Counted from the stretch's first letter, positions 2,850 through 36,470 are shown. The stretch is 64,000 nt of DNA from an uncultured Chloroflexia bacterium (GCA_963800615.1 CAWDBO010000021.1:214423-278422); one strand, 5' to 3'. Notes: generated by a model not told the origin, from the letters alone. Made by a program: numbers and translations.

Positions 2850-4307
2850 TCAGGCTGCTACAAGCTCTGCGGTCACCTCACCTAACACCGTCTTGATCTC
2901 CTCCAGCACGTAACCGGGGATCGGCTGCGACTTGTGCCCCTGCATGGCCGCCAGCGTCCGTTCGCGGAGCCGCGCATCCAACGCCTTGCTGCCCTGCCGG
3001 ACCCAGTCCGCCATCCGGTAGCGCCTGAACAGTCCCGGCTGCCAGGCTTCGCGGAAGTGATGCAGCGTGTGCTCTTCCTGGATGAACGATCCGCCCGGCC
3101 CAACCGCGTCGATCACTTCGAGGGCGAGCTGCTCCGCGTCGAGGCGGATGCCCGCGCCGAACTGCCGGACCAGCGAGATCAGCTCGGCGCAGAGCACGAT
3201 CATTTCGGGCGAGGTCATCAGGCCGGCCTCGAGGTAGCCGACGTCGTGGGCCAGGTGCGTGCCTGTGAGCTGGGCGACCAGGATCGAGAAGGCCGCGTCG
3301 GCAGCCGCCTGCTCGTCGAGCGCGAGGCTGTCCGACATGCCCGCATTGCCCCAGATCGGCAAGTGGTAGAAGCGGCCCAGCTCCGCGGACGCGACGCGCG
3401 CTAGCTCGTACTCGGGCGAACCGTACACGCTGATCGTCGAGCGCATGTCCATGTGGTGCGCCTGGACGCCGTAGATGAAGGGCGCGCCGGGCCGCATTGA
3501 GCTGCTGGATGACCAGGCTGGATAGCACTTCCGCGTTGCCGAGCGCCAGGCCGCCGGCGAGCGTGACGGGCGCGGTCCCGCCCATCATCGGCGCGGGCGA
3601 GTGGATCAGGGGCAGGCCGTGCTCCGCCATGAACAGGAGCTTGCCGGTCGCGGTCTCCGAATGCTTGAGCGGCGTCGTCGGCTCGGAGTACAGCGCCAGC
3701 GTGGGGTTGAGGCTCAGCTCGTCCATGCCGCCCGCGGCAGCCGCCGCCATCGCTGCGATCGCCTCGCAGTCGCGCGACGTCGTCGCAGACGAAGACGACG
3801 GGCTTTTCCGTGTGGCTGAGCATGAGCGCGTACTGCAACTGGTATGGGCTGGGCGTCGGCGCGTCGGACGGGATGCCCATGGACATGCAGAAGTCCATCT
3901 CGGGCAGCGCGTCGACGAGGCGGATACAGTCGACGACGTCGGCGGTCTGGAAGGGCCTGCGCGCACCCGTGGCCGGATCGAGGTAGTTCGGGCAGTCGGA
4001 GCCGGGGCCGTAGTAGACGCGGTCGCCGGCGAGGCGCATGGCGGGCTGCCGCGTGCCGCGGCGGCAGAGCGTGACCTCGGAGGGCGCCTGCATCGAGCGC
4101 CCACTCGACCAGGGCGGGCGGGAACCGCACCAGGTTGTCGTCGGTGATCAGCGCGTCGCTGCGGCGGAGAAGATCGAGGGCGGCGGCATGATAGACGCGG
4201 ACGCCGGTTCGGCGCAGGATTTCCAGGGACGCGTTGTGGATGACCTCGCAGTCGGAAAGACTCAACATGCTGAGGCGAGGGCTGGCAGTTCTTTCGGTGG
4301 GCATCAT
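2850..4307 (-). CDS. MttB-superfamily (trimethylamine methyltransferase-like) protein, paralog 1; at least 3 frame breaks
   Basis: Pieces from four ORFs join colinearly: LSDCEVIHNASLEILRRTGVRV, YYGPGSDCPNYLD, DFCMSMGIPSD, LPLIHSPAPMMGGTAPVTLAGGLALGNAEVL, MDMRSTISVYGSPEYEL, AHDVGYLEAGLMTSPEMIV and EEHTLHHFREAWQP. Frame changes lie at ~4090, ~3790 and ~3495. Confidence 0.85.
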
Positions 4308-4310
4308 GGG

Positions 4311-5743
4311 TTACAACCTCCAGTGGCGCCGGATGTATTCGACTTCCTCGAGGGTCGACGCGGGCAATTCCGGGGCGGCTGCCTTTTCCATCAGCGCAAC
4401 CGTCTTTTCGCGCAGCCGCCGGCCCAGGTCTTTCCCGCCCCGCTTGAGCCAGTCGTCGCGGCGCAGGCGGCTGTAGAGCGCCGGCTGCCAGAACTCCTTG
4501 AAGTGCTGCAGCGTGTGCTCGGTCGCCAGGTACGATCCGCCGGGGCCGACCTCGTCGATCAGGTCCAGGGCGAAGGCTTCAGGGCTCAGATCCATGCCCG
4601 CCATAAAGTGGCGCAGCCGGCCGATCACGTCTGCGGTGAAGACGATCATTTCGGGGGATACGGTGAGGCCGGCCTCGACGTATCCCACGTCGTGGACGAG
4701 ATGCTGGCCGCTCAGCAGTGCGACCATGACGGACGAGGTGGCGTCGGATGCGGCCTGCTCGTCCATGACGCAGCTGTCGGTGTAGCCCGCATAGCCATAA
4801 TGGGGCAGGTTGTAGTAACGGGCCATCTCGGCGACCGCGGCCCGGGCCAGCTCGAACTCAGGCGCGCCGTACACGGCGATCGTCGTGCGCATGTCCATGT
4901 GATGCAGGCCGCATCCGTACACGAAGGGCGCGCCGCGGCGGACAAGCTGGTGAATGACCAGGCCGGAGAGCAGCTCGGCGTTCCCGAGCGCGAGCGCCGC
5001 AGCCATCGACACCGGCGCGGCCCCACCCATCATCGGCGAGGCCTGGTGTACGATGGGCAGCCCGACCTCGGCCATGTACATCAGCTTCTCGGTGGAGTCT
5101 TCCCCGTGGATCAGCGGCGAGGTCGGTTGGCCGTACCCGAGCAGGTTCGGGCTGAGGCGCAGCTCCGCCATGCCCCCCGCGGCCGCGGCCGCCATGCCCA
5201 CGATCGCTTCGCACTCGGCCCGGCTGCCCAGGGTGAAGACGAGCGGCTTGGTCGTGTTCTCGAGCATGAGCGCGAACTCGTCGCAGTAAGGCGCCCGGGG
5301 GTTCAGGTCCGATGGCATGCCCATGGACATGCAGAAATCCAGTTGCGGCAGCGCGTCGACCAGGCGGACGCACTCGACGACGTCGGCTTCTTTGAACGGG
5401 CGCCGCTCGCCGGATCGCGGGTCCAGGTAGTTCGGGCAGGCGGAGCCGGTGCCGAAACTGACTTCGCGCCCCTCCATGCCACCGCGACCTCGGTGCTGCC
5501 GCGCTTGCACAGCGCGATGCGGGACGGCGGGCCGGCCAGCGCCCACTCGACCAGCGCCGGGGGGAAGCGGACCAGGTTGCCGTCGCTGATGAGGGCATGC
5601 GTGTCCCTGAGCAGCGCGAGCGCGCGGGGGTGGTCGACGCGGACGCCGGTCCGGCGCAGGATTTCGAGCGATGCGTGGTGGACGGCCTCACACTGGTCGT
5701 GCGTGAACAGGCTGAAATGCGGAACAGCTCGATTGGTGGGCAT
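4311..5743 (-). CDS. MttB-superfamily protein, paralog 2; one frame break ~5480
   Basis: ORF 4311..5546 is colinear with paralog 1 (GSACPNYLD, DFCMSMGMPSD, SPMMGGAAPVS, HHMDMRTTIAVYGAPEFEL, HDVGYVEAGLTVSPEMIV, TEHTLQHFKEFWQP). The N-terminus (DQCEAVHHASLEILRRTGVRV) is in ORF 5303..5743. Confidence 0.88.
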
Positions 5744-5764
5744 GGTTGGCCTTCGTGGTGGGTG

Positions 5765-6898
5765 TCAGGAGTGGTGGTAGCTCTCGTCGGTCTCGTAAAG
5801 CTCGTGCGCGCGGGCGACCGCATCCCAGTCGAGCCTCGAAGCCGAGGCCGGGGCGGGACGCAATCGCTGCATCGAGCTCGCCTTGAACGGGCGACAGGTC
5901 GGGCGCCTCGAGGATGTCTTCCGTGAGCAGCTGATGCATGATCTGGTTGCCGTCGGCCAGGTTAGGCAGGGTCAGGGCAACCTGGTGCTGCGCGAGGTCC
6001 GTCATGCCGGTCACGGACTGGCCGTGCAGGCAGACGGCGATGCCCGCCGCCTCGCGATCGCGGCCGCCTTCTTGAACGACAGCAGCCCGCCCGTCTCGTG
6101 GCATGACAGGACGATCAGGTCCGCGGCCTGCTGCCGGCAGACCTCGTACACATCATGCAAGGTAAAGACGGCCTGGTCGGCCGCGATGGGCACGGGCGAG
6201 GCGTCGTGCACTTGCTTGAGCGCGGCCAGGCTCTCCGCGGGCACCGGCTGCTCGACGAACTCGGGCTCGAACACGGCCAGCCGGCGGATCATGTAGAGGG
6301 CCATCCGCACGTCCCACGCCTCGTTCGCATCCAGCCGCAGCTTCCTGTCGCCGATGGCCTCGCGCACGGCGCGAACGTTCTCCAGGTCCTTCCGTTCGCC
6401 CCGGCCTACCTTTATGTAGATCACCGGGTAGCCCGCCGCGGGCCAACTCCGCCGCATCCTCGGCCAGCTCGTCCGCCGTGTCGCCCTGGGGGAAGCCGAA
6501 GTAATCCACCGTGGGGTGATAGGCGCCGCCGAGAAGTTGGTGCACGGGCGAGCCGGCGGCCTTGCCGATGACGTCCCAGAGCGCCATCTCGACGCCGGCG
6601 AGCGTGAGGTTGGCAAAACGGGGATTGTGCGAGAAGCCGCCGAGGAAGCGCGCCTCGTACACCAGGCGCTCGACGTCGAACGGGCTGCGCCCCTCGAAGA
6701 GCGGGGTCACGCCCTGCAGCGCGGCGAGCGCGACGTCGGCGGGGCGGCCGGCGGTCGTCTTCCCGTACCCGTTGATGCCCTCGTCCGTTTCGACTTCGAT
6801 CAGCAGGTTGACCGCGCCATCGTCGACCCGGCCGGCCCAGTGGTACGGTTCCTTGAACCGCAGCGCCAGTGGGGTGGCACGCAGGGCGTAATCTTCAC
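5765..6898 (-). CDS. Enolase-superfamily enzyme (mandelate racemase/muconate lactonizing enzyme family); several frame breaks
   Basis: ALWDVIGKAAGSPVHQLLGG, VIYIKVGRGERKDLENVRAVREAIGDRKLRLDANEAWD, FVEQPVP and PIAADQ are spread over ORFs 6153..6710, 6011..6616 and 5688..6104. The tail LDWDAVARAHELYETDESYHHS ends at TGA 5765-5767. The start near 6898 is uncertain. Confidence 0.8.
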
Positions 6899-6905
6899 AG
6901 GCAGC

Positions 6906-7884
6906 TCACGAGCTGGCGCACGGCGTCACTCCGGCAGTTATTTCACAGCGGATGCGCGGGTTCAGGACGCCGTAGAGCAGGTCGGCGGCAAGGTTGGCAA
7001 AGCAGAAGATGGCGACGACGACCATGCTGCAGGCCTGGATCAGGATCAGATCGCGGCGCTGGATGCCGTAGACGAGCAGCCGGCCGAGCCCCGGGTAGCC
7101 GAAGAGCTGCTCGGTGACGATCAGGCCGCCGATCAGGAAGCCGATGCCCATGGCGACGACCGTCACGGTGGGCAGCAGCGAGTTGCGGAGGACGTGCTTC
7201 GTCAGCACCTGGCGCTGCGGCAGGCCCTTAAGCTCCGCGGCTCGCACGTAGTCCGTCTTGAGCACGTCGATCGTGCTGGCGCGCGTCATGCGCGCCACAT
7301 AGCCGAGGCTGGTCAGGCTGACGGCGATGGCGGGCAGGATCAGGTAGGGCAGCGCGTCCTTGAAGGACGAATCCGGCGGGATCGAGGAGTTGGCCGGCAG
7401 CCACTTCAGCGACAGCGCGAAGACCGCGATCAGGATCAGCCCGGTCACGAACTCAGGGCAGGCCGACGAAGGCCATGGTGACCGCGGAGATGCCCTGGTC
7501 GACGGCCTTTTCGCGCTTGAGCGCGGCGATGGTGCCCAACAGGATCCCCAAGGGGACGTAGAACAGCAGCGCCACGACCGCCAGCATGGCCGAGTTCCGC
7601 AGCCGGCTCATGATCATCGGCATCACTGCTTGCTTGCTGACCATCGAAACGCCCCAGTCGCCGCGCACGAAGTGGGTCAGCCAGTCGAGGTATTGGACGT
7701 AGACCGGGCGGTTGAGGCCGAGCTCCTCACGCAAGTTCGCCACGGCTTCCTTCGTCGCGAACTGCCCGAGCATGACCGAGGCCGGGTCGCCCGGCAGAAG
7801 CTGCGTCGCTGCGAAGATCACGATCGACGCGAGCAGCATGGTCAGGAGGATCATGCTCACCCGGCGCAGAAGGTAGGTCGTCAT
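6906..7884 (-). CDS. Opp/Dpp-type ABC transporter permease (DppB-like); one frame break ~7450
   Basis: The N-terminus MTTYLLRRVSMILLTMLLASIVIFAATQLLPGDPA (ORF 7453..7884) joins the C-terminal part with YVRAAELKGLPQRQVLTKHVLRNSLLP (ORF 6906..7448). The start overlaps the upstream stop (ATGA 7881-7884). Confidence 0.85.
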
Positions 7885-9987
7885 GCGGTTCTCCCCTCAC
7901 TCACTGCGACCGGGGCGGTCTGCATGGCTTGCAGCTCGGCTGCCGGAATGTGGCAGCAAATGCGGTGATTCCCGCCAAGGTCCTGCCACGGCGGCTCCTG
8001 CGTCTCGCAGATTTCGCCGATCTTGCGCGGGCAGCGAGTATGGAAGCGGCAGCCGGACGGGATGTTAACCGCGCTGGGCACCGAGCCGTGCAGCCTGATC
8101 CGCTCCTGCTGGGCGTCGGGGTCGGGGATCGGTATGGCGGACAGCAGCGCCTCGGTGTACGGGTGAAACGGCGGCGAGAAGACGGCCTGCGGCGGGCCCG
8201 ACTCCCACAGGCGCCCGAGATAGACGACGCCGATCCAATCGGACAGGTGCAGGACCGCGGCGAGGTCGTGGGAGATGAACAGGTACGAAGTGCCCTGGGT
8301 TTCCTGCAGCTCGCCGAGCAGGTTCATCAGCGAGGCCTGCACCGACACATCCAGCGACGAGATCGGCTCGTCCAGGATCATCAGGCTGGGATCGGCCGCG
8401 AAGGCCCGGGCGATGGCGACCCGCTGCTTTTCGCCGCCGCTCAACTCGTGCGGCAGCCGGGTGACGTACTCCTCCGGCAGGTTCACGGCCGCGAACAGCG
8501 CCCGGACGCGGGCCGGTATCTCCTGTTTGGGCACCTTGCCGAGCAGCACCAGCGGCCGCGCGACGCTCTCGCCCACGGTGCGCTGCGGGTTCAACGACGC
8601 ATCGGGATTTTGGAAGACCATCTGGATCTTCCTGAGCTGGTCGGCCGCGCGCCGCCTCACCGCGTACGGCACCTGCTCGCCGTCCAGCTCGATCCGGCCG
8701 GCCGTCGCTTCCTCAAGCCCCGCGACGCAGCGCGGCGAACGTGGTCTTGCCGCAGCCGCTCTCCCCTACGATCCCCATGGTCAGGCCGCCCCGCACCCGC
8801 AGGCTCATGTCGTCGACGGCCCGCACGGCCTTGCGCCGCCCGCGCAAAATGTCGGCAATGCTCGCGCCGCCGACCGGGAAGTACTTCTTGACGTTGCGCG
8901 CTTCGAGCACGACCGGCCCTGCCTCGCGCTCGGTCACCCGCTCCTCCCGCTGCGCCGCCCTGGCGTACTGCTCGGGGTGATCGCGCAACTCCTGCCAGCG
9001 GATGCAGGCGGTGCGGTGGTCCGGCTCCGCCTCCACCAGGGGCGGCCGGGCCGCGCGGCAGGCATCGAGTGCGAGCGGGCAGCGCGGGGCGAAAATGCAG
9101 CCGGGCGGCAGCTGATCGGGGCGGGGAATATGGCCCTTGATCGTGTTCAGCAGGATATCGCGACTGTTCGCATCCACCCTGGGCACGCAGCCGAGCAGGC
9201 CGAGCGTGTAGGGATGGAGCATCTGCTTGAAGACCGGGCGGATGAAGCCCTCTTCCATGATCTCGCCCGCGTACATCACGCCGACCCGGTTGCAGATGCG
9301 CGCGACGACGCCGAGGTTATGGGTGATGTACAGCACCGCGGTGTGGTACTCGCTCAGCAGGTCGCGCACCAGGTCGAGGATGACCGCCTCGGTGGTGACG
9401 TCGAGGGCGGTGGTCGGCTCGTCCATGATCAGCAGGCGCGGGTTGGTGGTCAGTGCGATGGCGATGAGCACCCGCTGCAGCTGGCCGCCCGAGAGCTGGT
9501 GCGCGTAGCGCCGGGCGACGGTTTCGGGATCCGCCATGCGCACCTTGCTCAGCATGTCGATCGCCTTGGCCTGGGCGTCGCGCTTTGCCATCCCCAGGTG
9601 CAGCCGGGCGACCTCGGCGATCTGTTCGCCGATGGTGACGGAGGGATTGACCGCCGTGTTCGGGTCCTGGTGCACCATGGTGATCTTGGAGCCCCAGACC
9701 TTGCGCACCTCGGAGCGGGGCAGCCGCAGCAGGTCCGTGCCGTCGAGGCTGACCGAGTCGCCCGTGGCGTGCCCGTTGGCGGGCAGGTATTGGACGATGC
9801 CGCGCGCCAGCGTCGTCTTGCCCGAGCCCGACTCGCCCACCAGGCCGTAAATCTCGCCGGCCGCGATCTGCAGGGTCACGTTCCGGACCGTGTGCAGGGG
9901 ACCTTTTTCCGTGTCGTATGTAATGGTCAGGTTCTGCACGTCTAGCACGGGGCGGTTGGCGGCGCCGATCTGCGTGGAATCGTTCAC
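7881..9987 (-). CDS. Fused double ATP-binding protein of the Opp/Dpp-type ABC transporter (DppD-DppF fusion); one frame break ~8700
   Basis: The first half has Walker A GESGSGKTT and signature LSGGQLQR. The second half has GESGCGKTT (end of ORF 8713..9987), then LSGGEKQRVAIARA and ILDEPIS in ORF 7881..8672. Both halves carry oligopeptide-type C-terminal extensions. Confidence 0.85.
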
Positions 9988-10005
9988 CCATGATCGGTAT
10001 CCCCC

Positions 10006-10889
10006 TTACCCCGTGACCCCGCCGGGCAGCAGCATGCGCCGCAGCCCGTCGCTGAGGAAGCCGATGCCGACGACCAGCAAGGCGATGGCCCCGGCGGGAA
10101 AGAGCAGGACCCAGGGCGCCTGCGTGAAGTAGTTGCGCGCCTCGCCGACCATCAAGCCCCAATCGGGAGACAGGCGGCTGGACGCCCAGGCCGAGAAAGC
10201 CCAGCGACGCGACCAGGAAGATCGCGTAGGCAAACCGCATCGAGGATTCCACTGCCAGCGGCGGCAGCACGCTGGGCAGGATTTCGTCGACCATGATGTA
10301 AGTACGAGGATTCGCCCCGCATCTTGGCGGCTTCGACAAATTGGCGGGTTTTCAGGTCGAGCACGACGCTGCGGACGACGCGGGCGACCATGGGAATATA
10401 CAGGACGCCGACGACGAGGATGACGTTGAGCGCGCGATGGACCGAGCGTGCCCAGAATGAGCAGCGCGAGCAGCAGCGGTGGAATCGCCAGCAGCACGTC
10501 GACCAGGCGCATCGTGATTTCTTCCAGGAACGACGCCAAAGTAACCGGCGAACAGGCCCAGCGTCAGCCCGAGCAGCACCGCGATCAGCGTCCCGGTGCC
10601 CGCTACCACGAAAACATCCCGGCGCGCCGACGAGCACCGGCGTGAAGACATCGCGGCCGAACTGGTCGGTGCCGAAAACATGCTCGGCCGACGGCGGCTT
10701 CAGACGTTCCGTGAGCTTTTGCTGCGTATATGGATAGGGCGCGATCGTCGTGCCGAAAACGGCCAGGAAAAGGAAAAAGCCAACGATCGCGATCCCGATC
10801 AGCGTGGCCGGGTAGCGCCGCGAGCCTGCGCCAGGTGAGCGGCCAGGCGGGACGGCGTACGCACGGGCATAGTCCAGTTGTGCTTCCAT
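10006..10889 (-). CDS. Opp/Dpp-type ABC transporter permease (DppC-like); heavily frame-disrupted (5 or more breaks)
   Basis: Fragments across four frames read in order: ATLIGIAIVGFFLFLAVFGTTIAPYPY, HVFGTDQFGRDVF, VVAGTGTLIAVLLGLTLGLFAGYFG, MRLVDVLLAIPPLLLALLILG, YIPMVARVVRSVVLDLKTRQFVEAAKMRGES, ILPSVLPPLAVESSMRFAYAIFLVASLGFLGLGVQPP and WGLMVGEARNYF. Confidence 0.75.
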
Positions 10890-10970
10890 TTGGAGGTGAC
10901 TCTCCAGTCACTCTGCAGGCGGCGACCGGCAGGCTATCGCCGCCGGCCGCCCCTGCGAACGCGACAGGCC

Positions 10971-12692
10971 TTACTTCTCGAAGTACACGGTCCGCAGGTC
11001 CAGCGCCGTGCCGAGGTAGCTCGTCGGCTTCAGCCCCTTCAGCTTGTGGTGGCGCCCCAGAGGTTGTTGGCAAAGAACGGCACGATGATCGGGCCACGGT
11101 CGATGAAGATCTGCTGGATCTGCTTGTACAGGTCGGCTCGTTTGGCCCGATCCATCTCCACCGCGGCCTTGGCCGACAGGTCGTCCAGCTCCTTGTCGCA
11201 CCAGTGGCTCTCGTTCCACTTGGCGTTGCAGACGTAGGCCAGGTCCAGGTAGGGCTGCGGGTAGGCACGCGAGCCCCAGTCGGTGATCGCCAGGTCCGCC
11301 TCGAGCCAGAGATTGTCCGCGCCGTAGTAGACGTCGGACGGCACCAGCTGGATGTCGGCGTCGATGCCGGCTTCGGCCCACTGTTCCTTAAGGATCGTAG
11401 CCATGGCCGGGACCGGCGAGATCTGCTGCGCGGTCAGGGTGACCTTGAGCCCGTCCTTGTAGCCCGCGTCGGCCAGCAGCTGCTTGGCCTTCGCAACGTC
11501 GCGGACGGGGTCCGGTGCGTCCAGGTAGAAGTCGCCGTAGCCGGGGCCGAACGGCGTGTTGTGCCCGACCACGCCCAGCCCTTCGAACGCGCCGGCGAGG
11601 ATCGCCGCGTTATCGGTCGCCGCCTTGAAAGCCTGGCGGACCTTGACGTCGTCGAACGGCTTCTTGTCGCTGCGCATGCGCAGGACGAAGGCCGTGTTCG
11701 AGGGCTTCTCGAGCACCTGGATATTCTGATCTTCTTTCAGCGTCTTCACGAACTCGGACGGCAGATAGAGCAGGTAGTCCACCTGGCCGCCGCGCAACGC
11801 TTCCACCTGGGCCGATGGCTCGGCCATGAAGATGAACTCCATGCCGTCCAGGTAGGGCAGCTGGTTGCCGTCGGCATCCTTCATCCAGTAGTTCGGGTTC
11901 TTCTTGAAGGTCAGCCGGTCCTCGGGCAGGTACTTGTCGATCATGAACGGCCCGGTGCCGATGAACTCGGTCTTCGGGTCCTTGATCCCGCTCCACACGA
12001 TGAGCGCGTGGTAGTCGCCCAGGTCGAGCAGGAAGTCGGGGTTGGACTTCTTCAGCTTGAACACCACCGTGTTATCGTCGGGGGTGCTGATGTCCGTGAT
12101 GTTCGAGTACAGAGCAACCGTCGCCGCGCCGACCTTCTCGTCGCGCAGGCGATCGAATGTCGTCTTCACGTCTTTCGACGTGAGCGTCTCGCCGTTGTGG
12201 AACTTGACGCCCTGGCGGAGCGTGAAGGTCCAGGTCAACCCGTCTTCGCTGGTCGTCCACTTTTCGGCGAGGCTGCGGCTGGCGTCGGGCTGGTTCTCCT
12301 CGCCCGTGTAGACGAGGAAGTCGCCCCACTGCCGCCCAATTTCGTCGTCGGAAACCGAGCTGAGGAACGCGGGGTCGAGGTTCGTGGGCGCGAAGTAGGC
12401 GTGCTTCAGAACCCCGCCGTACTTTCCACCCGTAGCCGCCGGGGCCTGTGTAGGCTCTGGAGCGGCCGGGGCAGCGGTGGGCTCCGGCGCTTTCGTGGGC
12501 TCCGGTGCGGCCGTGGCCGCTTCCTTCGTCGGCTCCGCGGCCGGGGCCGTCGGTCGGTTGTGCGGCCGCGGCGGTCGGTTGCACCGGCGCGGCCGTCGGC
12601 TGGGGCGCGGCCGGGGTCGAGCACGCTGCAAGCAGCATGCTCAGGATGACGATGACGGCAAAGACGATGCCGACACTCCTGGACGACTTCAT
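10971..12692 (-). CDS. Family-5 (peptide/nickel type) ABC substrate-binding lipoprotein; frame breaks near both ends
   Basis: Signal plus lipobox MKSSRSVGIVFAVIVILSMLLAACS, then a P/T/A-rich linker. ORF 11039..12631 holds the SBP_bac_5-like body (TWTFTLRQGVKFHNGETLTSKDV, GTGPFMIDKY, FKKNPNYW). The tail KLKGLKPTSYLGTALDLRTVYFEK ends at 10971. Confidence 0.85.
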
Positions 12693-12800
12693 AGCTTTCC
12701 TCCTTTTGGCTGATGCGGACCGGGATACGCTGCACGAGTACGGGATACGAGAGCGATCAGAGAGCACCTCCTTCTGCCTGACAGCCGGCAACAGCTCCGA

Positions 12801-14182
12801 TCAGCGGCGCGTGAGCAAACCGATGATCTCCGCTGCGCCGGCGAGTTCGTCAAAACGCCACACGAGATCCGACAGAGCGTCGATTTGCGCTTCGTCCATC
12901 ACAAACTGCGCCATCCAGCGCAGCTTCTCGTCCATCCGGGGCACGTCCCAACCTGGCTGCGGGAAACGCAGGCCTCCGTCGACCAGGCCGGTTCTGTACT
13001 CCCGGCCGTCGTTCAGGGTGATCGTCACGGCGCTGGCGAAGCGTCCGCGCGGATCGCCCCGCTCGTAGAGCTTGCAGAGCCGCTCCATCTCCGGCGACTC
13101 CACAGTCGTCACTTTCGCGGCCAGGCTGCGGATACGCTCATCCGACAGCCGCTCCTCCAGGATTTGATCCGGGCCGATCTCGCCGTCGACCAGCATGGCC
13201 GCGATAGGCCAGGACTGGCTGAACTGCGCTTCCTCGGTCGTCGAAGGCAAACCCTTGAAGAGGGCAGCCCGCCCCGTGGCCTGCCTCGACCATGATACCC
13301 GTAATCTGATCGAGGTCAATCCGGTTCTCCTCGACGAGCCGCCGGGCGCCTTCCACACCCGCATGAGCCCAGCCGCAGCACGCGTAGCGGGCCGCTTTCC
13401 ATGCCACGCCGTCGACCATCAGGTAGTCCTGCCCGATGGAGCAGGCCCATTCCTGGTATTCGGGCAGCGCCAGCAGCGTCGGGAATGCCGGTGAAGCCGC
13501 GGGCCGCCAAGCCCGGCAGACGTCACGCCCGTCATCGCGGCCCAACCGATGCCGTGCTTGACCATGCCCGGCTCGCGCAACGTCGCGCATCATCGGCAGG
13601 TTCGGCGCGTTGTACTCGGCGATGCCGAGCGCGTGGCCGGCCTGCTCCGGCGCAAGCCGCATCAGGTTAGCGGCGACGGCCGCGCAGGCCACGCTGCCCC
13701 ACGAGCCGCACGCCTGGTACACGTCGCGGCTGGCATGCCAGCACCGGCCGATCCGGTGCGCTACCTCGTATCCTACCACAAGCGCGGCCAGGATGTCGGC
13801 GCCCGTGGAACCCAACGCCTCGCCCACTGCCAGGGCCGTGGGGAAGATCGACGCGCCGGCGTGCCCGTTGGCGTAGCGGGCGCTGTCGTCCAGGTCCAGT
13901 CCATTGGCCGCGCAGCCGTTGGCGAACGCCGCGCCCGCCACGCCGGCCCGGATGCCGTACAGGCCGCGGCCTGCGCTGTGGGCCAGGATCGTGGCCTCGT
14001 CCCCGGCCCACGAAACCCTTGCGTACTCCGCGGCAATCCGGCTGACCGGGGCGAGCGTGCCCGCGATGGTCGCGCCCAGCCCGTCTGCGAAGCACATGCG
14101 CGCCTTGGCTTGGACCGGCGCGGGCAGATCCGCCCACCGGGTCTCTGGCGACAAAACGCGCGGCCAGCTCGTGTCCGTTCAT
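12801..14182 (-). CDS. MmgE/PrpD family protein; about 3 frame breaks
   Basis: N-terminus MNGHELAARFV...WADLPAPVQAKARMCFADGLGATIAGT, followed by ANGLDLDDSARYANGHAGASIFPTALAVGE, in ORF 13138..14154. The C-terminal domain is in ORF 12801..13364. The start overlaps the upstream stop (ATGA 14181-14184). Confidence 0.8.
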
Positions 14183-15634
14183 CACCGCGCCTCGGCCACG
14201 ATCTCGTCCAGCCGGCTCTGCACGTCTGCGGGCAGCGGCTCGGGCTTGTGCGTCGCCAGGATCTTCAGCGCCTTCTCCTGGGCGCGCTGCCGGAGGGTTT
14301 TGCCGCCCGCCCGGCTCCAATCCTCGTACGGCTTGCGGTCGAACAGCTTCGGGTACCAGTCTTCCTTGTAATGCTTCCGGGTGTGCTCCGAGCCCATGAA
14401 GTCGCCGAACGGCCCGATCTCGTCGATGATGTCGAGCGCCAGCGTCTCCTCGTTGACTTCCAGCCCCTTCATGAACTGCTTCGTGTACCCGATCAGCTCG
14501 TCGCAGATCACGATCTGCTCGACCGAATTGCACATGCCGCCTTCCAGGTAACCGACGTCGTGCGCCATCTGCGCGCCGGCCAGGGTTTCGAGGATGATCG
14601 AGAACGCAGCTTCGGCCGCGGCTTGCTCGTCGGGGATCTTCGAGTCGCTGCAGCCGGCAAGCCCGAAGATGGGGAGGCCGTAGCGGTGGGCGAGCTCGAC
14701 GAGCATCACCCGGTTGTTCGGGTCCGCATACGCATCGACCGTCGTGCGCATGTCGAGCATGTCGTTCACGCCGCCCGTCAGGATGATGGGCGCGCCTTCG
14801 CGCTTGATCTGGGCGATGACCAGGCCCGCCAGCTCGCCCGCATTGGCCATGGCGATCGCGCCCGCCGCGGTGACCGGTCCGCTGACGCCGCGCAGGACGA
14901 CCGGGGTGTAGGTCGTCGGCAGGCCCTTGCCGGCCATGAAGATGAGCTTCTGCAGCGCCTCCGCGTTATGGCGCAGCGGGTGGGTGACGTTGATGTACAG
15001 CGCGCAGATCGGGTTCCTCCGCAGCGCCTCCTCGCCTCCGGCGACCGCCTCGGCCATGCGGATCACGTCGACGCAGCCGGGGAACTCGGTCGTGACGAAC
15101 AGGATCGGCTTCGTGGTATTCGCCAGCATCGCGCGCATCTGGTAGCGGTCCGAGACGGCCTGGTCCACGTCGGAGGCGATGCAGAACGACATAACGAAGT
15201 CGATGTTGGGCAGCGCGTCGCACACGAGCGCGGCTTCTCCGACATCCGCCAGCGTCCCCGTCCGCCGCACGCCGTCCCGCACGTCGATGACGTTGGGGCA
15301 ATCGGAGCCTGGCCCGTAGAAGACGTTGTTGCGTTCGAGCGGCATGACGCGCCGGCCGTTGCGGTCGCAGATGACCGTGCGTTTGGGCGCCACGCTGAGC
15401 GCCCACTCGACGAGGCCGGGCGGAATCCGCACGCGCGCGCCCGCGTCCCTCGTCGGCGTCTTCGGCCGGAAGCCCCTTGCGGCGCAGCAGCTCGACGGCT
15501 TCGGGTTCGTAAAGCACCACCCCGGTCCGGTCGAGGATCTCCAGGCTGGCGTGGTGGAGGCGCTCGGTCTGGTCGTCGGATAACTTGCGGAAACGAGGCG
15601 TGTCGTAGGATGTGTAGTTGCTCTGCAAGGCCAC
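14182..15634 (-). CDS. MttB-superfamily protein, paralog 3; one frame break ~15440
   Basis: ORF 14182..15432 has YGPGSDCPNVID, IDFVMSFCIASD, TPVVLRGVSGPVTAAGAIAMANAGEL, DMLDMRTTVDAYADP, AHDVGYLEGGMCNSVEQIV and SEHTRKHYKEDWYP. The N-terminus LSDDQTERLHHASLEILDRTGVV is in ORF 14966..15718. A GTG with AGGAG 8 nt upstream lies at 15634. Confidence 0.88.
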
Positions 15635-15739: not shown

Positions 15740-16637
15740 TCAGCCGGCGGCCAGCCTGGCCCGCTCGACTGCCTGGGTCAGGGCCTCCTCGACGAGCACC
15801 GGGAGCACGGCCAGGCGGTACTCGCGCGAGGCGCGCAGGACGCTGGTACGCGGCTCGGCATCGCAGAGCGCCAGCTGCGCGGCCTCGGCCAAGGTCGCCG
15901 GTGCGGGCGCTCTGCCGGCCAGGAATGCCTCCGCTTCGTGCGCCCGGACGGGGCAGGGGCCAACCGGACCCATCGCAATGGCGGCAGATGCGATCGTGTC
16001 GCCGTCGAGCACGACCTTCGCCGCGCAGTTCAGCGTGGGCAGCACGAGCGAAGGCCGGCGGCCCGCCCGGCGCCACGCGGTGCCCCACCCGCCGCCCGTG
16101 CCGCTGCCCGGGGGGATGGGGAACCGGATGTGCGTGACGAGCTGGCGGGTTGAGTCGATCCGCGAACGACCCGGGCCTGCGTACATCTCGGCGACCGGGA
16201 GCCAGCGTTCGCCCGACCGCGTCCAGGATCCGGACTTCCGCGTCGAGTGCGATGGCGATGATTGCGCCGTCGGCAGCCGGCATCGCCTGCACCAGGTTCC
16301 CCACCCAGGTAGCGGCATTCTGGATCGCGAGCGCGCCGACGGAAGCGGCCGCATCGGCGAGCGCATGAACGTGCGCTGCGAAGTACGGGTGCTCGCGCAG
16401 CGCGATGAATGGGACCGCCGCCCCGACGACCGCCCAGCCGTCGCCAATCTCGATGCTCGCCAACTCGGGGATGCGGGTGATGTCCACCAGGCACTCGAGC
16501 GTGCTGACTTGCGGCTTGCCCTTCTCGATGTCCAGCAATACGTCCGTGCCGCCGGCGACGATGCGTGCCTTGCCTTCCCAGGCCGACAGCGTCTCGACCG
16601 CTTGCTGCGCGCTCGCGGGGAAGAGGTACTGCGTCAT
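15740..16637 (-). CDS. Molybdenum hydroxylase set A, FAD-binding medium subunit (CoxM/XdhB-like); about 3 frame breaks
   Basis: [42 protein letters not shown]...ALAIQNAATWVGNLVQAMPAADG lies in ORF 15063..17438, and the C-terminal part in ORF 15740..16447. The ATG overlaps the large-subunit stop (ATGA 16634-16637). Confidence 0.8.
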
Positions 16638-18895
16638 TGCCGGTCGCTCCCCCGGATGGCGGCCAGGACGCGCTCGGGCGTGGCAGGGATGGTGCGCATC
16701 CGGCGTCCCGATCGCGCGGGAGATGGCGTTGACGATCGCCGGCGTGGAGGGCAGCATGGCCGCTTCGCCCAGGCCCTTGACGCCGAACGGTCCGAAGCGG
16801 CTGGGCACTTCGACGAGGATCACTTCGAGCTCCGGCATGGACTTGATCGTGGGCAGGTAGTAATCGGCAAAGCCGGTGGTGTGGCCGGGCAGCACCTCTT
16901 CCATCAGGGCCGCGCCGATGCCCATGAGCATCGCGCCTTCGATCTGCCCCTCGGCATCCGGCCGGTTCACGGCATGGCCCACGTCGTGCGCGGCCGCGAT
17001 CCTCAGCACGCGTACCTCGCCTGTCCGCAGGTCCACCTCGACCTCGGCCACGTGCGCGCCGGTGACGAAGAGGGGTGCGTACTCGGGCCTGGTATCCGGC
17101 GGGAAGTAAGGCGACAGGTCGAAGACGCCGCGGATGCGGCGCGGCTTGCCCGAGCCGGTCGAACTCGGCCGCCACTTCTGCCAGGGCGACGCGCTCGCCG
17201 TCCGCCGAGCAAACGCCGGCGCCCTGGAAGGCCAGCGACGACGGGCGCCCGGTCGAGCAGCTCCGCGGCCACTCCCAAGACTTCGTCGCGCAGGTTCGGT
17301 ACACGCCCTCACGACGGCCCCGCCCACGAAGTAGGTCGCCCGCGAGGCGCCCTGGATGCCGCTGTCGGGCGCGCGCGCCGTGTCCGCGTTGACCAGGGAC
17401 ACCAGGTCCCGGTCGACGCCGAGCGCCTCCGCGGCCATCTGCGACCATCGTCGTGTTGGTGCCCTGCCCGTAGTCGGCCGCGGTGCAGTAGACGACGAAC
17501 GAGCCGCCCGGGGCGGATCTCCGCGTGCGCCTCAACCCGCAGGTCGCCGGACTTGCCGAACCGGTACCACATCCCGGCAATCCCAACCCCCCGACTGTAG
17601 GGGCGGGGTTGCCCCGCCCACTCTGCCGGCATCCGCGATCATGGCCTGGTAGTGCGGCCGGAGCGCCTCGAGCACCTGCTCGAAGCCCAGCGACTCGGCC
17701 ACCGGATAGCCGAGGAACGACGGCTCGCCGTCGTGCAGCCGGTTCCGCAGCCTGAATTCGAGCGGATCGATCCCGAGCTTCTCGGCCAGCTCGTCCAGCG
17801 CGCACTCGGTGGCGAAGCAGGCCTGCGCGGTGCCGAATCCGCGGTACTGCCCCGCCTTCGGCCCGTTCGTGTAGACCGTCCGGGCGTACGCATCGACGGC
17901 TCGCCAGCGGTAAGGCCCGCCGCTGGCGGTCACGGCATAGTTCGGGATGTATTGGCCGGAAGAATCGTACGCGCCCGTGTTGGCGTCGATCCGCAGCTGG
18001 ATTGCCGCCAGCCGTCCGTCCCGGCTCGCGCCGATCTTGTTTCGGACAACGTAGGGATGCCGCTTCGGCGTGGCGAGGAAGGCTTCGTGGCGGGAATAGG
18101 CCAGCATCACCGGGCGGCCGGGTCGCATGGGTCATCAGCGCGGTGGCGACGAAGGGCCAGGGGTCCTGCCTGCCGCCGAAAGAGCCGCCGGTGGGCGGCA
18201 CGACGACGCGCACGCGATCACGCGGCAGGGCCAGGCTTGCCGCGATGTACGCCTGCTGGTAGTACGGCTCGTGCGCGCCGCCGGTGACGGTTAATCTTCC
18301 CTCTTCGTCGTAATAGCCCAGCAACGCCTCCCGCTCGAGCGCGCTGTGCTCCAGGAACGCGGTCCGGTACTCCGTTTCCACGATCACGTCCGACCTTGCC
18401 AGCTCGCCGTCGACGTCGCCGTGCTGGAGCTGATAGCGCGTCAGCACGTTGGCGTCTCCGGCGATGTGTGGCGCGCCGGGCTGCAGCGTCTCGTCGACGT
18501 CGAACGTATGGGGAAGGACCTCGTACTCGACCCGCACTGCGGCCGCGGCCGCCTTCGCCGCCTGGACCGTCTCCGCGACGACCAGGGCCACCGGCGCGCC
18601 TACCATGCGGACGGTCGATCCCACCGGCGCGAGCACCGGCTCCTCCTGGCTGTAGTCGCCGAGCCCGTTCTCGCCGGGGATGTCGTCTGCGGTCAGAACT
18701 GCCACCACGCCGGGAACCTCACGCGCAGGGCCGGCATCGAGCGACAGGATCCTGGCATGGTGATGTGGGGAGCGGACGACCACGCCCCTGCAACATGCCG
18801 TCCACGCTCATGTCCTCGACGTAACGCGTCGCGCCCGTCACCTTGCCAACGAGTCGGTTCGCAGGGCGCTGCCGCCGATTGTCAGACGCGGCCGT
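16634..18895 (-). CDS. Molybdenum hydroxylase set A, molybdopterin-binding large subunit (XDH/aldehyde oxidase family); about 6 frame breaks; 5' boundary uncertain
   Basis: [92 protein letters not shown] and [23 protein letters not shown] are spread over at least 5 ORF fragments. The tail [21 protein letters not shown] ends at 16634. Confidence 0.8.
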
Positions 18896-18897
18896 GT

Positions 18898-18920
18898 AGG
18901 GGCGAGGTAACCTCGCCCCT
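18898..18920. repeat. Perfect 10-bp stem / 3-nt loop hairpin AGGGGCGAGG-TAA-CCTCGCCCCT at the small/large subunit junction
   Basis: Read directly from the sequence. Confidence 0.9.
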
Positions 18921-19410
18921 AGCGGTCGTCCCTCTCGTGCCGAGCGCATCCGCCGCGCGGCCAGCTCGACCGCCTCGGCGATCTTCTTGTACCCCGTACA
19001 GCGGCACAGGTTGCCTTCCAGCGCGTCGACGATCTGCTCGCGGGTGGGCTCGAGCGTCCGGTCCAGCAGGCCCTTGGCTGCCATCAGCATCCCGGGCGTG
19101 CAGTACCCGCACTGGACCGCGCCCACCTCGATAAACGCCGTGCTGCAGCGGGTGGAGCTCGCCGCCCTTCGCCAGCCCTTCGACGGTCTCGCACGCGCCT
19201 CCCGGCTGCCTTTGCAACCGGGGTCAGGCACGACCGGACGGGCCGCCCATCCAGCAGGACCGTGCACGCGCCGCACTCGCCCTCGTGATCGCAGCCTTGC
19301 TTCGTGCCCGTCAGCCCGAGCTCGGCGCGCAGGACGTCCAGCAGCGGCCGTGCAGGATCGACATCGACCGCCGCCGCCGCGCCGTTGAGCAAGAACTCTA
19401 TGTGCGCCAA
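18921..19410 (-). CDS. Molybdenum hydroxylase set A, [2Fe-2S] small subunit; 1-2 frame breaks; 3' boundary uncertain
   Basis: [10 protein letters not shown]...[23 protein letters not shown], then [18 protein letters not shown] and [13 protein letters not shown] prefer TTG 19410 (AGGAGAG upstream) over ATG 19431, which lies inside a hairpin arm. The frame reads through a 23-nt hairpin into the large subunit. Confidence 0.75.
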
Positions 19411-19497: not shown

Positions 19498-20602
19498 TTA
19501 TGCCCAGGCTGTCTGCAGGACGGATTCGAGGGTCGCGATCAGCCGGGCGTTCTGGCTCGGGTCGCCGACGGTGATGCGGAGATGCTCGGGCAGATCGTAG
19601 CCGGTGCAGGGGCGGACGATGACCCCGCGTTTGAGGAGCTCCGAATAGACGGTCTTGGCATCGGGTCCGAGGTGCGCCAGGACGAAGTTGGTCTGGCTGG
19701 GGACGTAGCCGATTCCCAGCCGGTCGAACTCCCGGTAGAGGAACTCCCGGCCTTCCGCGTTGACCGCGACCGTGCGCTTCAGGAATTCGGGGTCCTTCAG
19801 CGCGGCCTCGCCCGCGATCTGTGCGAGCAGGTTGACCGGGAAGGACTCGGAGCAGGACCGCATCGGCGCGAGCAGTTCGGCGGATGCGAGCGCGTAGCCC
19901 ATCCGGATGCCCGCGATCCCGTATGCCTTGGAGAAGGTCCGCAGGATGCAGACGTTCGTCCGGCCCTCGAGGATGTACGGCATCGTGTCGGGGTACGCCG
20001 GGTCGTCCACGAACTCGTAATACGCCTCGTCGAAGACGACGATCGTCGTGTCCGGGACATGGCGCATGAACTCGGCGACCTCCTGCCGGGTAACGATGCT
20101 GCCGGTCGGGTTGTTCGGGTTGCAGACGAAGATCAGCTTCGTCCGCGGGGTGATGGCGCGGCGCCATCGCCCGGAGATCGAACCGGAGGTCGGGCGTGAG
20201 GGGCGTCTTCACCAGCCGGGCGCGCATCACTGCCGCGCTGATGTCGTACACCGGGAAGGTCGAGCAGCTGGTCAGCATCTCGTCGTCGTCGTTGAGATAG
20301 GCGACACACAGCTCGCGAATGACGCCGTCCGCGCCGTTCCCGATCCGGACCATCTCCGCATCGACCCCGTGGTGCGCAGCGAGCGCGTGACGGAGCCGGT
20401 ACGCCTGCGCATCGGGGTAGTAGTTGAGATTCGGCAGCGCCTCCATCAGCGCCTGCACCACGACCGGCGACGCCCCAATCGGGTTCTCATTGGAAGCGAG
20501 CTTGATAACGTCCGTCAGCCCGTACTCGCGCTGCACCTCTTCGATCGGTTTCCCCGGCACATACGGCCGGATGGCGCTCAGACCACGTTGCGGCTTGACC
20601 AT
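19498..20602 (-). CDS. hisC: Histidinol-phosphate/aromatic aminotransferase (class II, HisC family); one frame break ~20160
   Basis: IKLASNENPIG, YPDAQAYRLRHALA, TPRTKLIFVCNPNNPTGS (restored by dropping one C near 20156-20165), FDEAYYEF, and the PLP lysine in RTFSKAYGIAGIRMGY. Confidence 0.8.
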
Positions 20603-20683
20603 TGATCCACCTCAAGTACTCGCACAAGCGGATAATGTAGCGCAATGGACTTCGCCAGACTCGCCGGAGCGCGCGTTCAGCCG

Positions 20684-22913: not shown

Positions 22914-23517
22914 CGTGTCTCGACCGCCGCAGCCGCGTTGAACGCGAACAGGTTGCGCTCCGCGCCCCGCTTCCACCGGCCTGCGATCACCTCGGCCATG
23001 GCCTCGGGCGACAAGATCTCCCCCAGCCGGGTCCGGGCCGCGGCGACGCCCAACGTGTAGACATTGTCCGGCACGGGCTGCCCCTCGTACTGGGGCAGCC
23101 GATCGGGGTCGATAACGACCGGCTGAGCGCCAGCTGCCCGCACCTGTTCGAGCACCGCCTCCAGCGCGGGATACGCCGCCTTGCCGAGCATCACGGCGGC
23201 TGGCTGCCACACGTAGGCGAACAAGACGAAGTCCCCGCCGGGCTTCAGGTACCGCACGGCCTTGAGCGACTCCGAGACCTCGGTCGCGATCACCAGGTCC
23301 GCGCCCTGTTCCGGGATGGCCGGGCCGGGATCGCTCGGTGACCCCGGCGGCCGATGCGGCACTGCGCCTTGACGAACCCGCCGCGCTGGGCCATGCCCTT
23401 GGTGGGGTAGAAGCTGACCGGGAGGCCGGCGCGGAACGCCGTCTCGGTGATGATCTCGCCGATGGTCAGAACGCCCTGCCCGCCGACGCCCACGAGGTAG
23501 ATATCGAAGGTTTTCAT
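22910..23517 (-). CDS. iorB: Indolepyruvate:ferredoxin oxidoreductase, beta subunit; one frame break ~23340
   Basis: MKTFDIYLVGVGGQGVLTIGEIITETAF...YPTKGMAQRGG, then ADLVIATEVSESLKAVRYLKPGG. ATGA overlaps are present at both ends (23514-23517 and 22910-22913). Confidence 0.8.
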
Positions 23518-26807: not shown

Positions 26808-26834
26808 CCGTTCCGTATCCGTTTCTCCGTTCGG

Positions 26835-29174: not shown

Positions 29175-29669
29175 CGCACGCCTCCTCGCTCGGGCGCAGC
29201 ATCCCGGAGCTTCTCGGCCGCGACCTTCACCGCCTCGACAACCGGCCCGTACCCCGTACACCGGCAGAGGTTGCCCGAAATCGCTTCCTTGATCTCTTCG
29301 TCGGTGGGTTCGGGGTTCTGATCGAGCAGCGCTTTCGCCGCGATGATCAGGCCGCCCGTGCAGTAGCCGCACTGGACCGCGCCGAGGTCCGCGAAGGCCT
29401 CCTGCAGCGGGTGCGGGTGGTCGAGCGTGCCGACGCCCGCGGGCGTCAGCACGGGGAGCCCGTCCGCCTGCCACGCGAGGGTCAGGCAGGAATTGACCGG
29501 CTTTCCGTCGAGCAGCACCGCGCACGCGCCGCAATCGCCCTTCTCGCACCCGTTCTTCACGTCGGTATAGCCGAGGTCCCTGCAGCGCCTGCAGCAGCGT
29601 GATATTCGGCGTCAGCGCGGCGTAGTGGGTCCGGCCGTTGACGTTGAGCGTGATGACTTGTGGTTTCAT
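29171..29669 (-). CDS. Molybdenum hydroxylase set B, [2Fe-2S] small subunit; one frame break ~29575
   Basis: MKPQVITLNVNGRTHYAAL, then GCEKGDCGACAVLLDGKPVNSC, VQCGYCTGGLIIAAKALL and GNLCRCTGY. An ATGA overlap with the FAD subunit lies at 29666-29669. Confidence 0.85.
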
Positions 29670-31096: not shown

Positions 31097-31144
31097 CGCC
31101 CGCTGTTGGTCGGGTTCGAGGGTCAGCGAAGCTGCCCTACCCGC

Positions 31145-31178
31145 AGACCTGACAGGTTTCGAAAGACCTGTCAGGTCT
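31145..31178. repeat. Paired palindromes AGACCTGACAGGT / AGACCTGTCAGGTCT around TTCGAA
   Basis: Read directly. It lies in the spacer between the set C FAD and small subunit genes and has the same architecture as the AGAAACC(A/T)GGTTTCT pairs. Confidence 0.9.
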
Positions 31179-34506: not shown

Positions 34507-34610
34507 CCTTGCCTCCGTTGGCAGGGGTCAATAACCACCAGGAACCCAAGAACCGAAGTCACACAAAGCTTCGTGAGCCTTTTCGCCTTTGGTTCTTTGT
34601 GGTGACCGGG

Positions 34611-35543
<933 letters not shown>

Positions 35544-36427: not shown

Positions 36428-36470
36428 TTTGTGATCGGGGTGTCAATATCCTTTTTTCTGGGAGAGTCGT
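36428..36470. promoter_or_regulatory. 43-nt divergent intergenic region between the IclR regulator and MttB paralog 4
   Basis: Back-to-back starts at 36427 (minus) and 36471 (plus). GGGAGAG lies before ATG 36471. No operator palindrome was recognised. Confidence 0.3.

Follow-up and report, generated by a model that had tools for sequence, protein, structure and literature searches.

A conserved gene array of an uncultured Anaerolineae bacterium that probably couples import of an N-methylated compound to its demethylation by non-pyrrolysine MttB-type enzymes

Introduction

To our knowledge, non-pyrrolysine homologues of the methyltransferase MttB are very numerous in genomes, and only about six of their substrates are known. 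A 64-kb stretch of DNA from an uncultured bacterium (CAWDBO010000021.1:214423-278422; hereafter the window, to which all positions refer) carries three genes of this type in a minus-strand array at 2850-15634, together with genes for an enolase-superfamily enzyme, an MmgE/PrpD-family protein and an Opp/Dpp-type importer. What might such a combination do, if no gene for a corrinoid partner lies beside it? We consider it likely that the conserved array imports an N-methylated compound and demethylates it via corrinoid-dependent MttB-type enzymes, the carrier partner being encoded elsewhere. Three elements of this proposal are inferred: how methyl groups are transferred, what the two putative epimerases do and what sort of compound serves as substrate.

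Results

Gene content and order of the array

The window has a G+C content of about 68% and spurious long open reading frames (ORFs) are frequent. Consequently, genes were placed by third-position GC and by Pfam searches on stop-to-stop segments. The nearest relative, L001 (equal to survey locus L006), is a 714-kb contig of an uncultured Chloroflexota metagenome-assembled genome (MAG; isolate MFD02979.bin.2.155), which is collinear with window positions 4353-25786 at 77-86% nucleotide identity. A megablast search of the region against plasmids gave short ABC-ATPase matches only. The array, read in the direction of transcription, and two further features to which we return are as follows:

14182-15634, minus strand: MttB-3, non-pyrrolysine MttB-superfamily methyltransferase (PF06253, E=3.9e-87, 292.8 bits)
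12801-14182, minus strand: MmgE/PrpD-family protein, iminodisuccinate-epimerase-like (PF03972, 113 bits, and PF19305, 64 bits)
11039-12692, minus strand: family-5 solute-binding lipoprotein of the Opp/Dpp/Nik type (PF00496, SBP_bac_5, E=5e-90)
about 10006-10889, minus strand: DppC/OppC-like permease (OppC_N and BPD_transp_1 fragments; tblastn pieces with the L001 orthologue)
about 7881-9987, minus strand: fused DppD/DppF-type double ATPase (two ABC_tran and two oligo_HPY domains)
6906-7884, minus strand: DppB-like permease (BPD_transp_1_N and BPD_transp_1)
5765-6898, minus strand: enolase-superfamily (MR_MLE) enzyme of the 2PGW group (PF02746, MR_MLE_N, and PF13378, MR_MLE_C)
4311-5743, minus strand: MttB-2, non-pyrrolysine MttB paralog (PF06253, E=5e-73, 246.2 bits)
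2850-4307, minus strand: MttB-1, non-pyrrolysine MttB paralog (PF06253 pieces in three frames, 134 bits, and more pieces)
15743-19410, minus strand: xanthine-dehydrogenase (XDH)-family molybdoenzyme, located just upstream of MttB-3 and made up of 2Fe-2S, Mo-binding and FAD subunits (tblastn with the L001 subunits)
36480-37894, plus strand: MttB-4, divergent and frameshifted paralog beside an IclR regulator (PF06253 and IclR matches; tblastn pieces in three frames)

The PF06253 cut-off of 25 bits is exceeded by MttB-1, MttB-2 and MttB-3. Pfam places each family, and its order on the minus strand, as the original prediction had stated, and start and stop codons were found precisely at the boundaries given there: MttB-3 runs from a GTG at 15634 to a TGA at 14184-14182, the PrpD gene from an ATG at 14182 to a stop at 12803-12801 and the enolase-family gene from a GTG at 6898 to a stop at 5767-5765. 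The tight junctions it had described were found as well, as MttB-3 and PrpD share 1 nt, ATPase and DppB overlap by ATGA and the remaining gaps amount to 4-21 nt. While gene content and coordinates thus stood, the intact ORFs that had been implied did not, since nearly every gene is frame-broken.

With a family-5 binding protein, two permeases and oligo_HPY ATPases, the transporter is of the Opp/Dpp/Nik type. Its binding protein carries the lipobox MKSSRSVGIVFAVIVILSMLLAAC, and the lipoprotein signal ends with LLAAC. No NCBIfam model reached its cut-off for the key proteins, nor did any substrate-specific one for importer or binding protein.

Neighbourhoods in related genomes

Relatives were surveyed with one genome per species, yielding 80 loci, in which tblastn with seed proteins was used to identify families up to 10 kb from the MttB-3 orthologue. 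All 80 belong to Chloroflexota, the majority being labelled Anaerolineae or Anaerolineales, and the host of the window is an uncultured Anaerolineae (Chloroflexota) bacterium. The MttB-3 clade comprises more than 120 protein clusters of at least 80% identity (80-93%), whose source names, where given, point to Chloroflexota; MttB-3 itself is 93% identical to an intact protein of 484 aa (P0001).

The array is collinear in L001, and the same families recur around MttB-3 orthologues of other genomes. An XDH-type molybdoenzyme is found near the orthologue in 54 of the 80 loci and immediately upstream of it in 34 of 68. It is the strongest conserved neighbour of MttB-3, and while the array had been recognised correctly beforehand, this enzyme had been overlooked. 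Further neighbours are an Opp/Dpp-type importer (32/80), additional MttB genes (30/80), histidine ammonia-lyase and/or urocanase (18/80), a PrpD-like gene (16/80), an enolase-family (MR_MLE) gene (6/80) and an octopine-dehydrogenase-family gene (4/80).

Some of these loci contain the corrinoid partner. In L004/L034 and in L005 the order is PrpD, family-5 binding protein, OppC, ATPase, DppB, octopine dehydrogenase, MttB, MttB-3, B12-binding protein and histidine ammonia-lyase (HAL). L015 contains family-5 binding protein, OppC, ATPase, DppB, PrpD, MR_MLE, an MttB-2-like gene, MttB, MttB-3, B12-binding protein, MttB, HutH and HutI. The order in L021 is MttB, MttB-3 and B12-binding protein, and in L064 B12-binding protein, Pterin_bind, XDH and MttB-3. 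The orthologues directly beside the B12-binding protein (L004/L034, L015 and L021) share 77-79% identity with MttB-3, the one in L064 66%. According to Pfam, the corrinoid protein of the relatives (about 208 aa) consists of PF02607 and PF02310, and the methyltransferase is a PF00809 protein. Since these proteins are encoded at the relatives' loci, MttB-3 orthologues are components of corrinoid methyltransferase systems of the ordinary three-component kind. In conservation (80-100% identity) and abundance, the family of the corrinoid protein equals the MttB-3 clade among the best 120 matches. On another Chloroflexota contig (L088) the corrinoid/Pterin_bind pair stands alone, the surrounding 10 kb being free of MttB genes.

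A close homologue of the enolase-family gene (64-100% identity) is directly followed by an MttB gene in five of five species loci; this gene is of the MttB-2 type in L006, L015, L020 and L070 and another MttB paralog in L029. A sixth MR_MLE match, in L069, is merely 27% identical. PrpD partners at the surveyed loci either with the enolase-family gene or with an octopine-dehydrogenase-family gene.

In L003/L023, L025, L027, L031, L048 and L084 the MttB-3 orthologue directly follows hutH and hutU, and some hutH-type lyases at these Anaerolineae loci show an Ala-Cys-Gly variant of the MIO motif. The idea that HAL-like neighbours might be ergothionases, which free trimethylamine from ergothioneine, was rejected, because their MIO motif (GASGD/GACGD) is that of true ammonia-lyases. 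A separate observation concerns L039, where a 350-aa fusion of a Crp-type helix-turn-helix with B12-binding_2 and B12-binding domains (7399-8448, minus strand) adjoins a corrinoid protein and an MttB gene. It may be a cobalamin-sensing regulator.

Search for the corrinoid partner in the window

The absence of a corrinoid protein and of a partner methyltransferase from the 64 kb, already claimed in the original prediction, was reproduced by Pfam, tblastn and a six-frame search with a hidden Markov model (HMM). No B12-binding, pterin-binding or activase domain was detected when fragments in the coding frames of 1-2.9 kb and 25.3-42.4 kb were scanned with Pfam, nor was one present in the Pfam list of the L001 stretch that is collinear with 15.7-25.8 kb. 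Positions 42-64 kb were covered for corrinoid and pterin-binding proteins only, by six-frame HMM and tblastn. When the whole window was searched by tblastn with the relatives' corrinoid proteins and their pterin-binding counterparts, no match at E<0.1 was obtained. An HMM built from seven corrinoid proteins of the lineage was applied without filters to every six-frame segment of at least 30 aa, and its best E was 4.5. A frame-broken copy of a corrinoid gene would have been detected, and neither HMM nor tblastn revealed one hidden in a frame-broken region.

As MttB-3 orthologues stand beside corrinoid genes, the pair in L088 is solitary and partners in Ruegeria pomeroyi are unlinked (see Discussion), the lack of a partner nearby is expected for such systems and no sign of new chemistry. 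Of the two explanations originally offered, a partner encoded elsewhere is supported by the B12-binding proteins next to orthologues and by the stand-alone pair in L088, while a different chemistry found no support.

MttB paralogs and their active site

MttB-1 and MttB-2 are 55% identical to each other, MttB-3 shares 40-45% with both, and MttB-4 about 33% with the others. MttB-2 is 91% identical to its L001 orthologue. MttB-4 is divergently paired with an IclR-family regulator gene (35557-36732, minus strand). Among proteins of solved structure, the MttB-3 orthologue matches about equally well the pyrrolysine-containing MttB of Methanosarcina barkeri (7XCL, E=4e-54) and MtgB of Desulfitobacterium hafniense (2QNE and 9YCE, 3e-56), with about 30% identity to MtgB. 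Aligned to 7XCL, the pyrrolysine position is occupied by Cys in MttB-3, Tyr in MttB-2, Met in MttB-1 and Ser in MttB-4. There is no stop in these segments, and the in-frame amber codon that would mark a bona fide trimethylamine methyltransferase is found in none of the four paralogs, which are all non-pyrrolysine members. No tRNA genes were found in the 64-kb window. TIGR02369, the equivalog model of trimethylamine MttB, scored 375 and 302 bits and did not reach its cut-off of 525.

In MtgB, glycine betaine is bound by Tyr97, Arg312, His348 and Phe356, and Arg312 (MtgB numbering), which pairs with the acidic group of the substrate, is conserved in all characterised members (PMC13080624). While the characterised quaternary-amine members MtgB, MtpB, MtcB, MtyB and MthB carry Arg312, the paralogs of the window do not: by alignment only, the position is Phe in MttB-3, Tyr in MttB-2, Trp in MttB-1 and Val in MttB-4. 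Elsewhere it is Tyr in pyrrolysine-containing MttB, and Arg is kept in a homologue on Sinorhizobium meliloti pSymA. Of the four binding residues, MttB-1 to MttB-3 retain only His348, and MttB-4 has Pro there. Tyr97 is replaced by Ser in MttB-2 and MttB-3 (the fragments of MttB-1 and MttB-4 do not reach this position) and Phe356 by Gly in MttB-1 to MttB-3. The alignment suggests that the substrate of the MttB paralogs is bound otherwise than the known betaines. The MttB-3 clade hence departs from an active-site rule that was derived from all characterised members.

Accessory enzymes

The best match of the enolase-family orthologue of L001 in the PDB is 2PGW (E=5e-106), followed by muconate cycloisomerases and dipeptide epimerases at about 1e-37. 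The 2PGW protein appears to be encoded on S. meliloti pSymA, and a tblastn search of this replicon gave an identity of about 49%. The metal-ligand motifs LDANE, EQP and ADQ are kept in common with 2PGW homologues. Based on these sequence features, the product belongs to the 2PGW group of the enolase superfamily (MR/MLE). No solved HpbD structure is named among the 60 best PDB matches listed, the model for cis-3-hydroxyproline dehydratase reached 86 bits against a cut-off of 500, and a literature search for '2PGW' returned no paper assigning a function. On pSymA, ABC permease and ATPase genes lie between an MttB-family gene and the MR_MLE gene; in Paracoccus seriniphilus the 2PGW-type homologue neighbours SoxBDAG-like genes with tdh and kbl, and in Agrobacterium sp. 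T29 it neighbours DUF3445, DmmA and VanB-type genes. Since alphaproteobacterial homologues thus stand beside three different N-demethylation enzymologies, their context supports a role of the 2PGW-type enzyme on N-methylated amino acids, where it would most simply catalyse racemisation or epimerisation.

The PrpD-like protein is 59-74% identical to its L001 orthologue across two frames. Its nearest solved structure is iminodisuccinate (IDS) epimerase (2HP0, E=2e-21), and with 32.9 bits against a cut-off of 950 in the equivalog model NF042438 it is far from 2-methylcitrate dehydratase. The fused ATPase is 88% identical to its L001 orthologue in two frames. For the XDH-type enzyme the nearest structures are aldehyde oxidoreductase, 4-hydroxybenzoyl-CoA reductase and nicotinate dehydrogenase, and none of known specificity is close.

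Frame breaks

The spans of MttB-3 (1453 nt) and PrpD (1382 nt) are not divisible by 3, and Pfam as well as tblastn with intact orthologues spread the genes over two to four frames each. MttB-1 contains at least three breaks, MttB-2 two 1-nt deletions (near 5479 and 5417), and MttB-3 one 1-nt insertion near 15443, its single gap compared to L001. The enolase-family gene has two to three breaks, DppB one (near 7455), the ATPase one (near 8735), the DppC-like permease several, the binding-protein gene one within the N-terminal linker and PrpD at least three. Dozens of single-base indels separate window and L001 in the alignment. Neighbouring genes for 2-oxoacid:ferredoxin oxidoreductase (POR), CoA ligase and XDH are broken as well. 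Over the whole window (1-64000), single-base frameshifts disrupt the majority of genes, among them those for the ADP-forming CoA ligase, IolD and LacI; they are densest at 2.8-38 kb and 59.8-64 kb, whereas a number of genes at 43-58 kb are unbroken. L001, which stems from the same type of MAG assembly ('contig_NNNN' names), is broken at different sites, and its binding-protein gene is called as three pieces. Every break observed is an indel, and no in-frame stops were noted in coding segments. The ratio of nonsynonymous to synonymous substitution rates (dN/dS) between window and L001 is 0.063 for MttB-3, 0.058 for MttB-2 and 0.071 for DppB; the ATPase was left out, its value being unreliable because an indel displaces the alignment. 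The array genes are under purifying selection. Since neighbours are hit too, L001 is broken elsewhere, only indels occur and dN/dS is 0.06-0.07, the frame breaks are probably assembly errors rather than decay, a pattern that fits an unpolished, probably long-read MAG assembly. The genes were treated as functional, with a small residual chance of true decay.

Other genes of the window

The window contains three XDH-family gene sets (2Fe-2S, FAD and Mo subunits) at 15743-19410, 26838-31429 and 31242-34527. Genes for a dihydropyrimidinase/hydantoinase-like amidohydrolase (25614-26834) and for an aspartate/ornithine carbamoyltransferase-like protein (34531-35543) accompany them, and the whole resembles an N-heterocycle degradation island. 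Upstream of the first XDH genes, 19516-25425 encodes an aminotransferase, a 160-aa protein without Pfam match, an ADP-forming acyl-CoA synthetase and a three-subunit POR. It is a fermentative set leading from amino acid via 2-oxoacid and acyl-CoA to ATP, kept in L001 and partly in L009, L010 and L012. MttB-4 is separated from the gene of an apolipoprotein-like repeat protein by a stretch of lower GC that contains a gene for an FRG-domain protein (37902-38810, minus strand).

Judged by translations only, 47168-63998 encodes IolB-, IolD- and IolE-like proteins, Gfo/Idh/MocA dehydrogenases, two aldehyde dehydrogenases, a sugar ABC transporter and a LacI regulator, and looks like a region for myo-inositol catabolism. 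Within it, a gene for a periplasmic sugar-binding protein (49139-51922, minus strand; 928-aa product) carries an 867-nt unit in triplicate (49143-51743), the copies being in tandem, in frame and 99-100% identical. The unit exceeds the 500-nt period limit of Tandem Repeats Finder and was found by a separate repeat search. The triplication is either real or an assembly artefact.

Discussion

In the pathway that we propose, the Opp/Dpp-type importer with its lipoprotein receptor would take up an N-methylated, probably cationic compound related to an amino acid or an N-heterocycle. The non-pyrrolysine MttB paralogs would act as substrate-specific MT1 enzymes, each taking a methyl group off a nitrogen that bears a positive charge and loading it onto the Co(I) of a small corrinoid protein, from which a pterin-binding methyltransferase would pass it on to tetrahydrofolate. 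Corrinoid protein, pterin-binding methyltransferase and reductive activase would be encoded outside the window and probably be common to dispersed MttB paralogs. The 2PGW-type enzyme and the IDS-epimerase-like PrpD protein might adjust the configuration of a carbon that carries a carboxylate, in either the substrate or the product. Such an array would be composite, MttB-3 going mainly with the upstream XDH-type molybdoenzyme and the enolase-family gene with MttB-2-type genes. The originally predicted route of import and demethylation gained from synteny, recurring families and the context of 2PGW. Its proline-betaine-like substrate, in contrast, found no specific support, given the missing HpbD among the 60 PDB matches listed and the missing carboxylate-binding arginine.

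Several points weigh against this proposal. The 64 kb contain neither a corrinoid protein nor a pterin-binding methyltransferase, and the Pfam-scanned parts contain no RamA-like activase. None of the best 120 corrinoid-protein matches lies on the L001 contig (714,604 bp). A B12-binding protein was found within 10 kb of the MttB-3 orthologue in only 6 of 80 loci. PrpD (16/80) and the enolase-family gene (6/80) are minority neighbours, so that the array may not form a single pathway. With Arg312 absent and only His348 kept, function is not simply transferable from characterised enzymes.

As to the substrate, the linkage with hut genes (18/80), the XDH-type enzyme and the wider neighbourhood hint at a methylated histidine derivative, and this neighbourhood also allows for another N-methylated heterocycle. 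The window itself contains no hut genes, which makes this reading rather unlikely. One might speculate that the MttB-3 clade, perhaps along with MttB-1 and MttB-2, represents a new substrate class, namely N-methylated cations bound without a salt bridge between carboxylate and arginine. This idea, which we regard as rather unlikely, is based on the replacement of Arg312, the XDH-type neighbour in 54 of 80 loci and the hut genes in 18. Candidates would be histidine derivatives methylated at a ring nitrogen or at the alpha-N (N-methylhistidines, hercynine or compounds related to ergothioneine) as well as pyridinium or purine compounds with N-methyl groups, for instance trigonelline, and the demethylated heterocycle might be handed to a dedicated molybdenum hydroxylase or to HutH/HutU/HutI. 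Literature searches returned no pathway of this kind, one for hercynine demethylation gave nothing relevant, and one combining enolase superfamily, betaine and trimethylamine methyltransferase found no paper.

Other explanations were weighed against import and corrinoid-dependent demethylation of one compound. Two or more unrelated modules with different substrates might simply adjoin each other, XDH with MttB-3 on one side and PrpD, importer, enolase-family gene, MttB-2 and MttB-1 on the other. We consider this possible, albeit doubtful. It overlaps with our proposal, since the array is composite anyway, and the issue is whether one substrate is shared. Separate modules would fit the XDH genes, which immediately precede MttB-3 in 34 of 68 loci and are its sole recognised neighbour in 19, the pairs of MR_MLE and MttB-2-type genes in other contexts (L020 and L070) and the identity of only 40-45% between MttB-3 and the paralogs MttB-1 and MttB-2. 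However, the genes are co-oriented with junctions of 1-21 nt or overlaps, L001 keeps the identical combination, and L015 joins ABC genes, PrpD, MR_MLE and four MttB genes with a corrinoid gene. The same corrinoid gene, sharing its array with an MttB-2-type gene, makes it highly improbable that the paralogs are corrinoid-independent or follow otherwise different chemistry, as the missing partner genes and active-site residues unlike those of all characterised members might suggest. Orthologues of MttB-3 with 77-79% identity stand beside a B12-binding protein, the one with 66% (L064) shares an array with both a B12-binding protein and Pterin_bind, and the MttB-3 clade is matched by the corrinoid protein family in conservation (80-100%) and abundance.

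Proline betaine or hydroxyproline betaine as substrate, with the enolase-family enzyme as an HpbD-type epimerase, is improbable too. An enolase-superfamily enzyme is indeed linked to demethylases, and MtpB, an MttB member, uses proline betaine (as cited within PMC13080624). Yet the best PDB match is 2PGW, with no HpbD named among the 60 listed, the score of the cis-3-hydroxyproline dehydratase model is far below its cut-off (86 versus 500 bits), the arginine that binds the betaine carboxylate is missing from all paralogs, and no catabolic genes for proline or hydroxyproline were seen in the window. A decaying pseudogene cluster with real frameshifts would explain why nearly all genes at 2.8-37.9 kb are broken, while several at 43-58 kb look intact. 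Nevertheless, it is very improbable in view of a dN/dS of about 0.06 compared to L001, of breaks that are all indels without an in-frame stop noted in coding segments, of neighbouring metabolic genes broken as well, and of L001 breaks at different positions. Import and corrinoid-dependent demethylation of an N-methylated compound is thus the explanation we prefer. Since the MttB-3 clade is common in Anaerolineae MAGs, identification of its substrate would add a sink for methylated amines in these poorly cultured bacteria and would also give a function to the 2PGW group of enolases and the IDS-epimerase-like group of PrpD proteins.

The closest known systems are MtgB/MtgC/MtgA of D. hafniense and MtpB, MtcB, MtyB and MthB of Eubacterium limosum, whose MT1 enzymes are, as here, PF06253 TIM barrels without pyrrolysine. 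Like MtgB, the orthologue in relatives adjoins a corrinoid protein of about 208 aa and a Pterin_bind methyltransferase, and His348 is kept. In contrast, identity to MtgB is only about 30%, Arg312, Tyr97 and Phe356 are replaced, the partner genes lie outside the locus, and the host is an Anaerolineae bacterium. Furthermore, a 2PGW-type enzyme, an IDS-epimerase-like PrpD, an Opp/Dpp importer and an XDH-type enzyme are not known to be part of any described system. The HpbD pathway for proline betaine and hydroxyproline betaine, reportedly described by Zhao and colleagues in 2013, combines an enolase-superfamily 2-epimerase with Rieske demethylases. It resembles the array in coupling an enolase-superfamily enzyme to the N-demethylation of an imported methylated amino acid, whereas here the enzyme is of the 2PGW group, the demethylases are of MttB type and downstream hydroxyproline genes are absent. 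On S. meliloti pSymA, the 'muconate cycloisomerase' 2PGW, a structural-genomics entry, is likewise clustered with an MttB-family gene and an ABC importer; however, that MttB keeps Arg312, and its transporter is annotated merely as ABC permease and ATPase. MttB of M. barkeri (7XCL) shares with the paralogs an aromatic residue at the position of MtgB Arg312 (Tyr there, Phe, Tyr or Trp here), but the paralogs lack the amber codon and stay below the TIGR02369 cut-off.

An experimentally documented precedent for the dispersed partners is found in R. pomeroyi, where the pfam06253 proteins called MtgB require MtgC and MtgD, whose genes lie elsewhere, so that MttB-family genes stand apart from corrinoid and pterin-binding components serving more than one methyltransferase; that system differs in acting on glycine betaine and in sharing its partners with a split methionine synthase (PMC12478193). 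Taken together, the array is most likely a corrinoid-dependent methylamine methyltransferase system in which the active site is unusual and the accessory enzymes are new.

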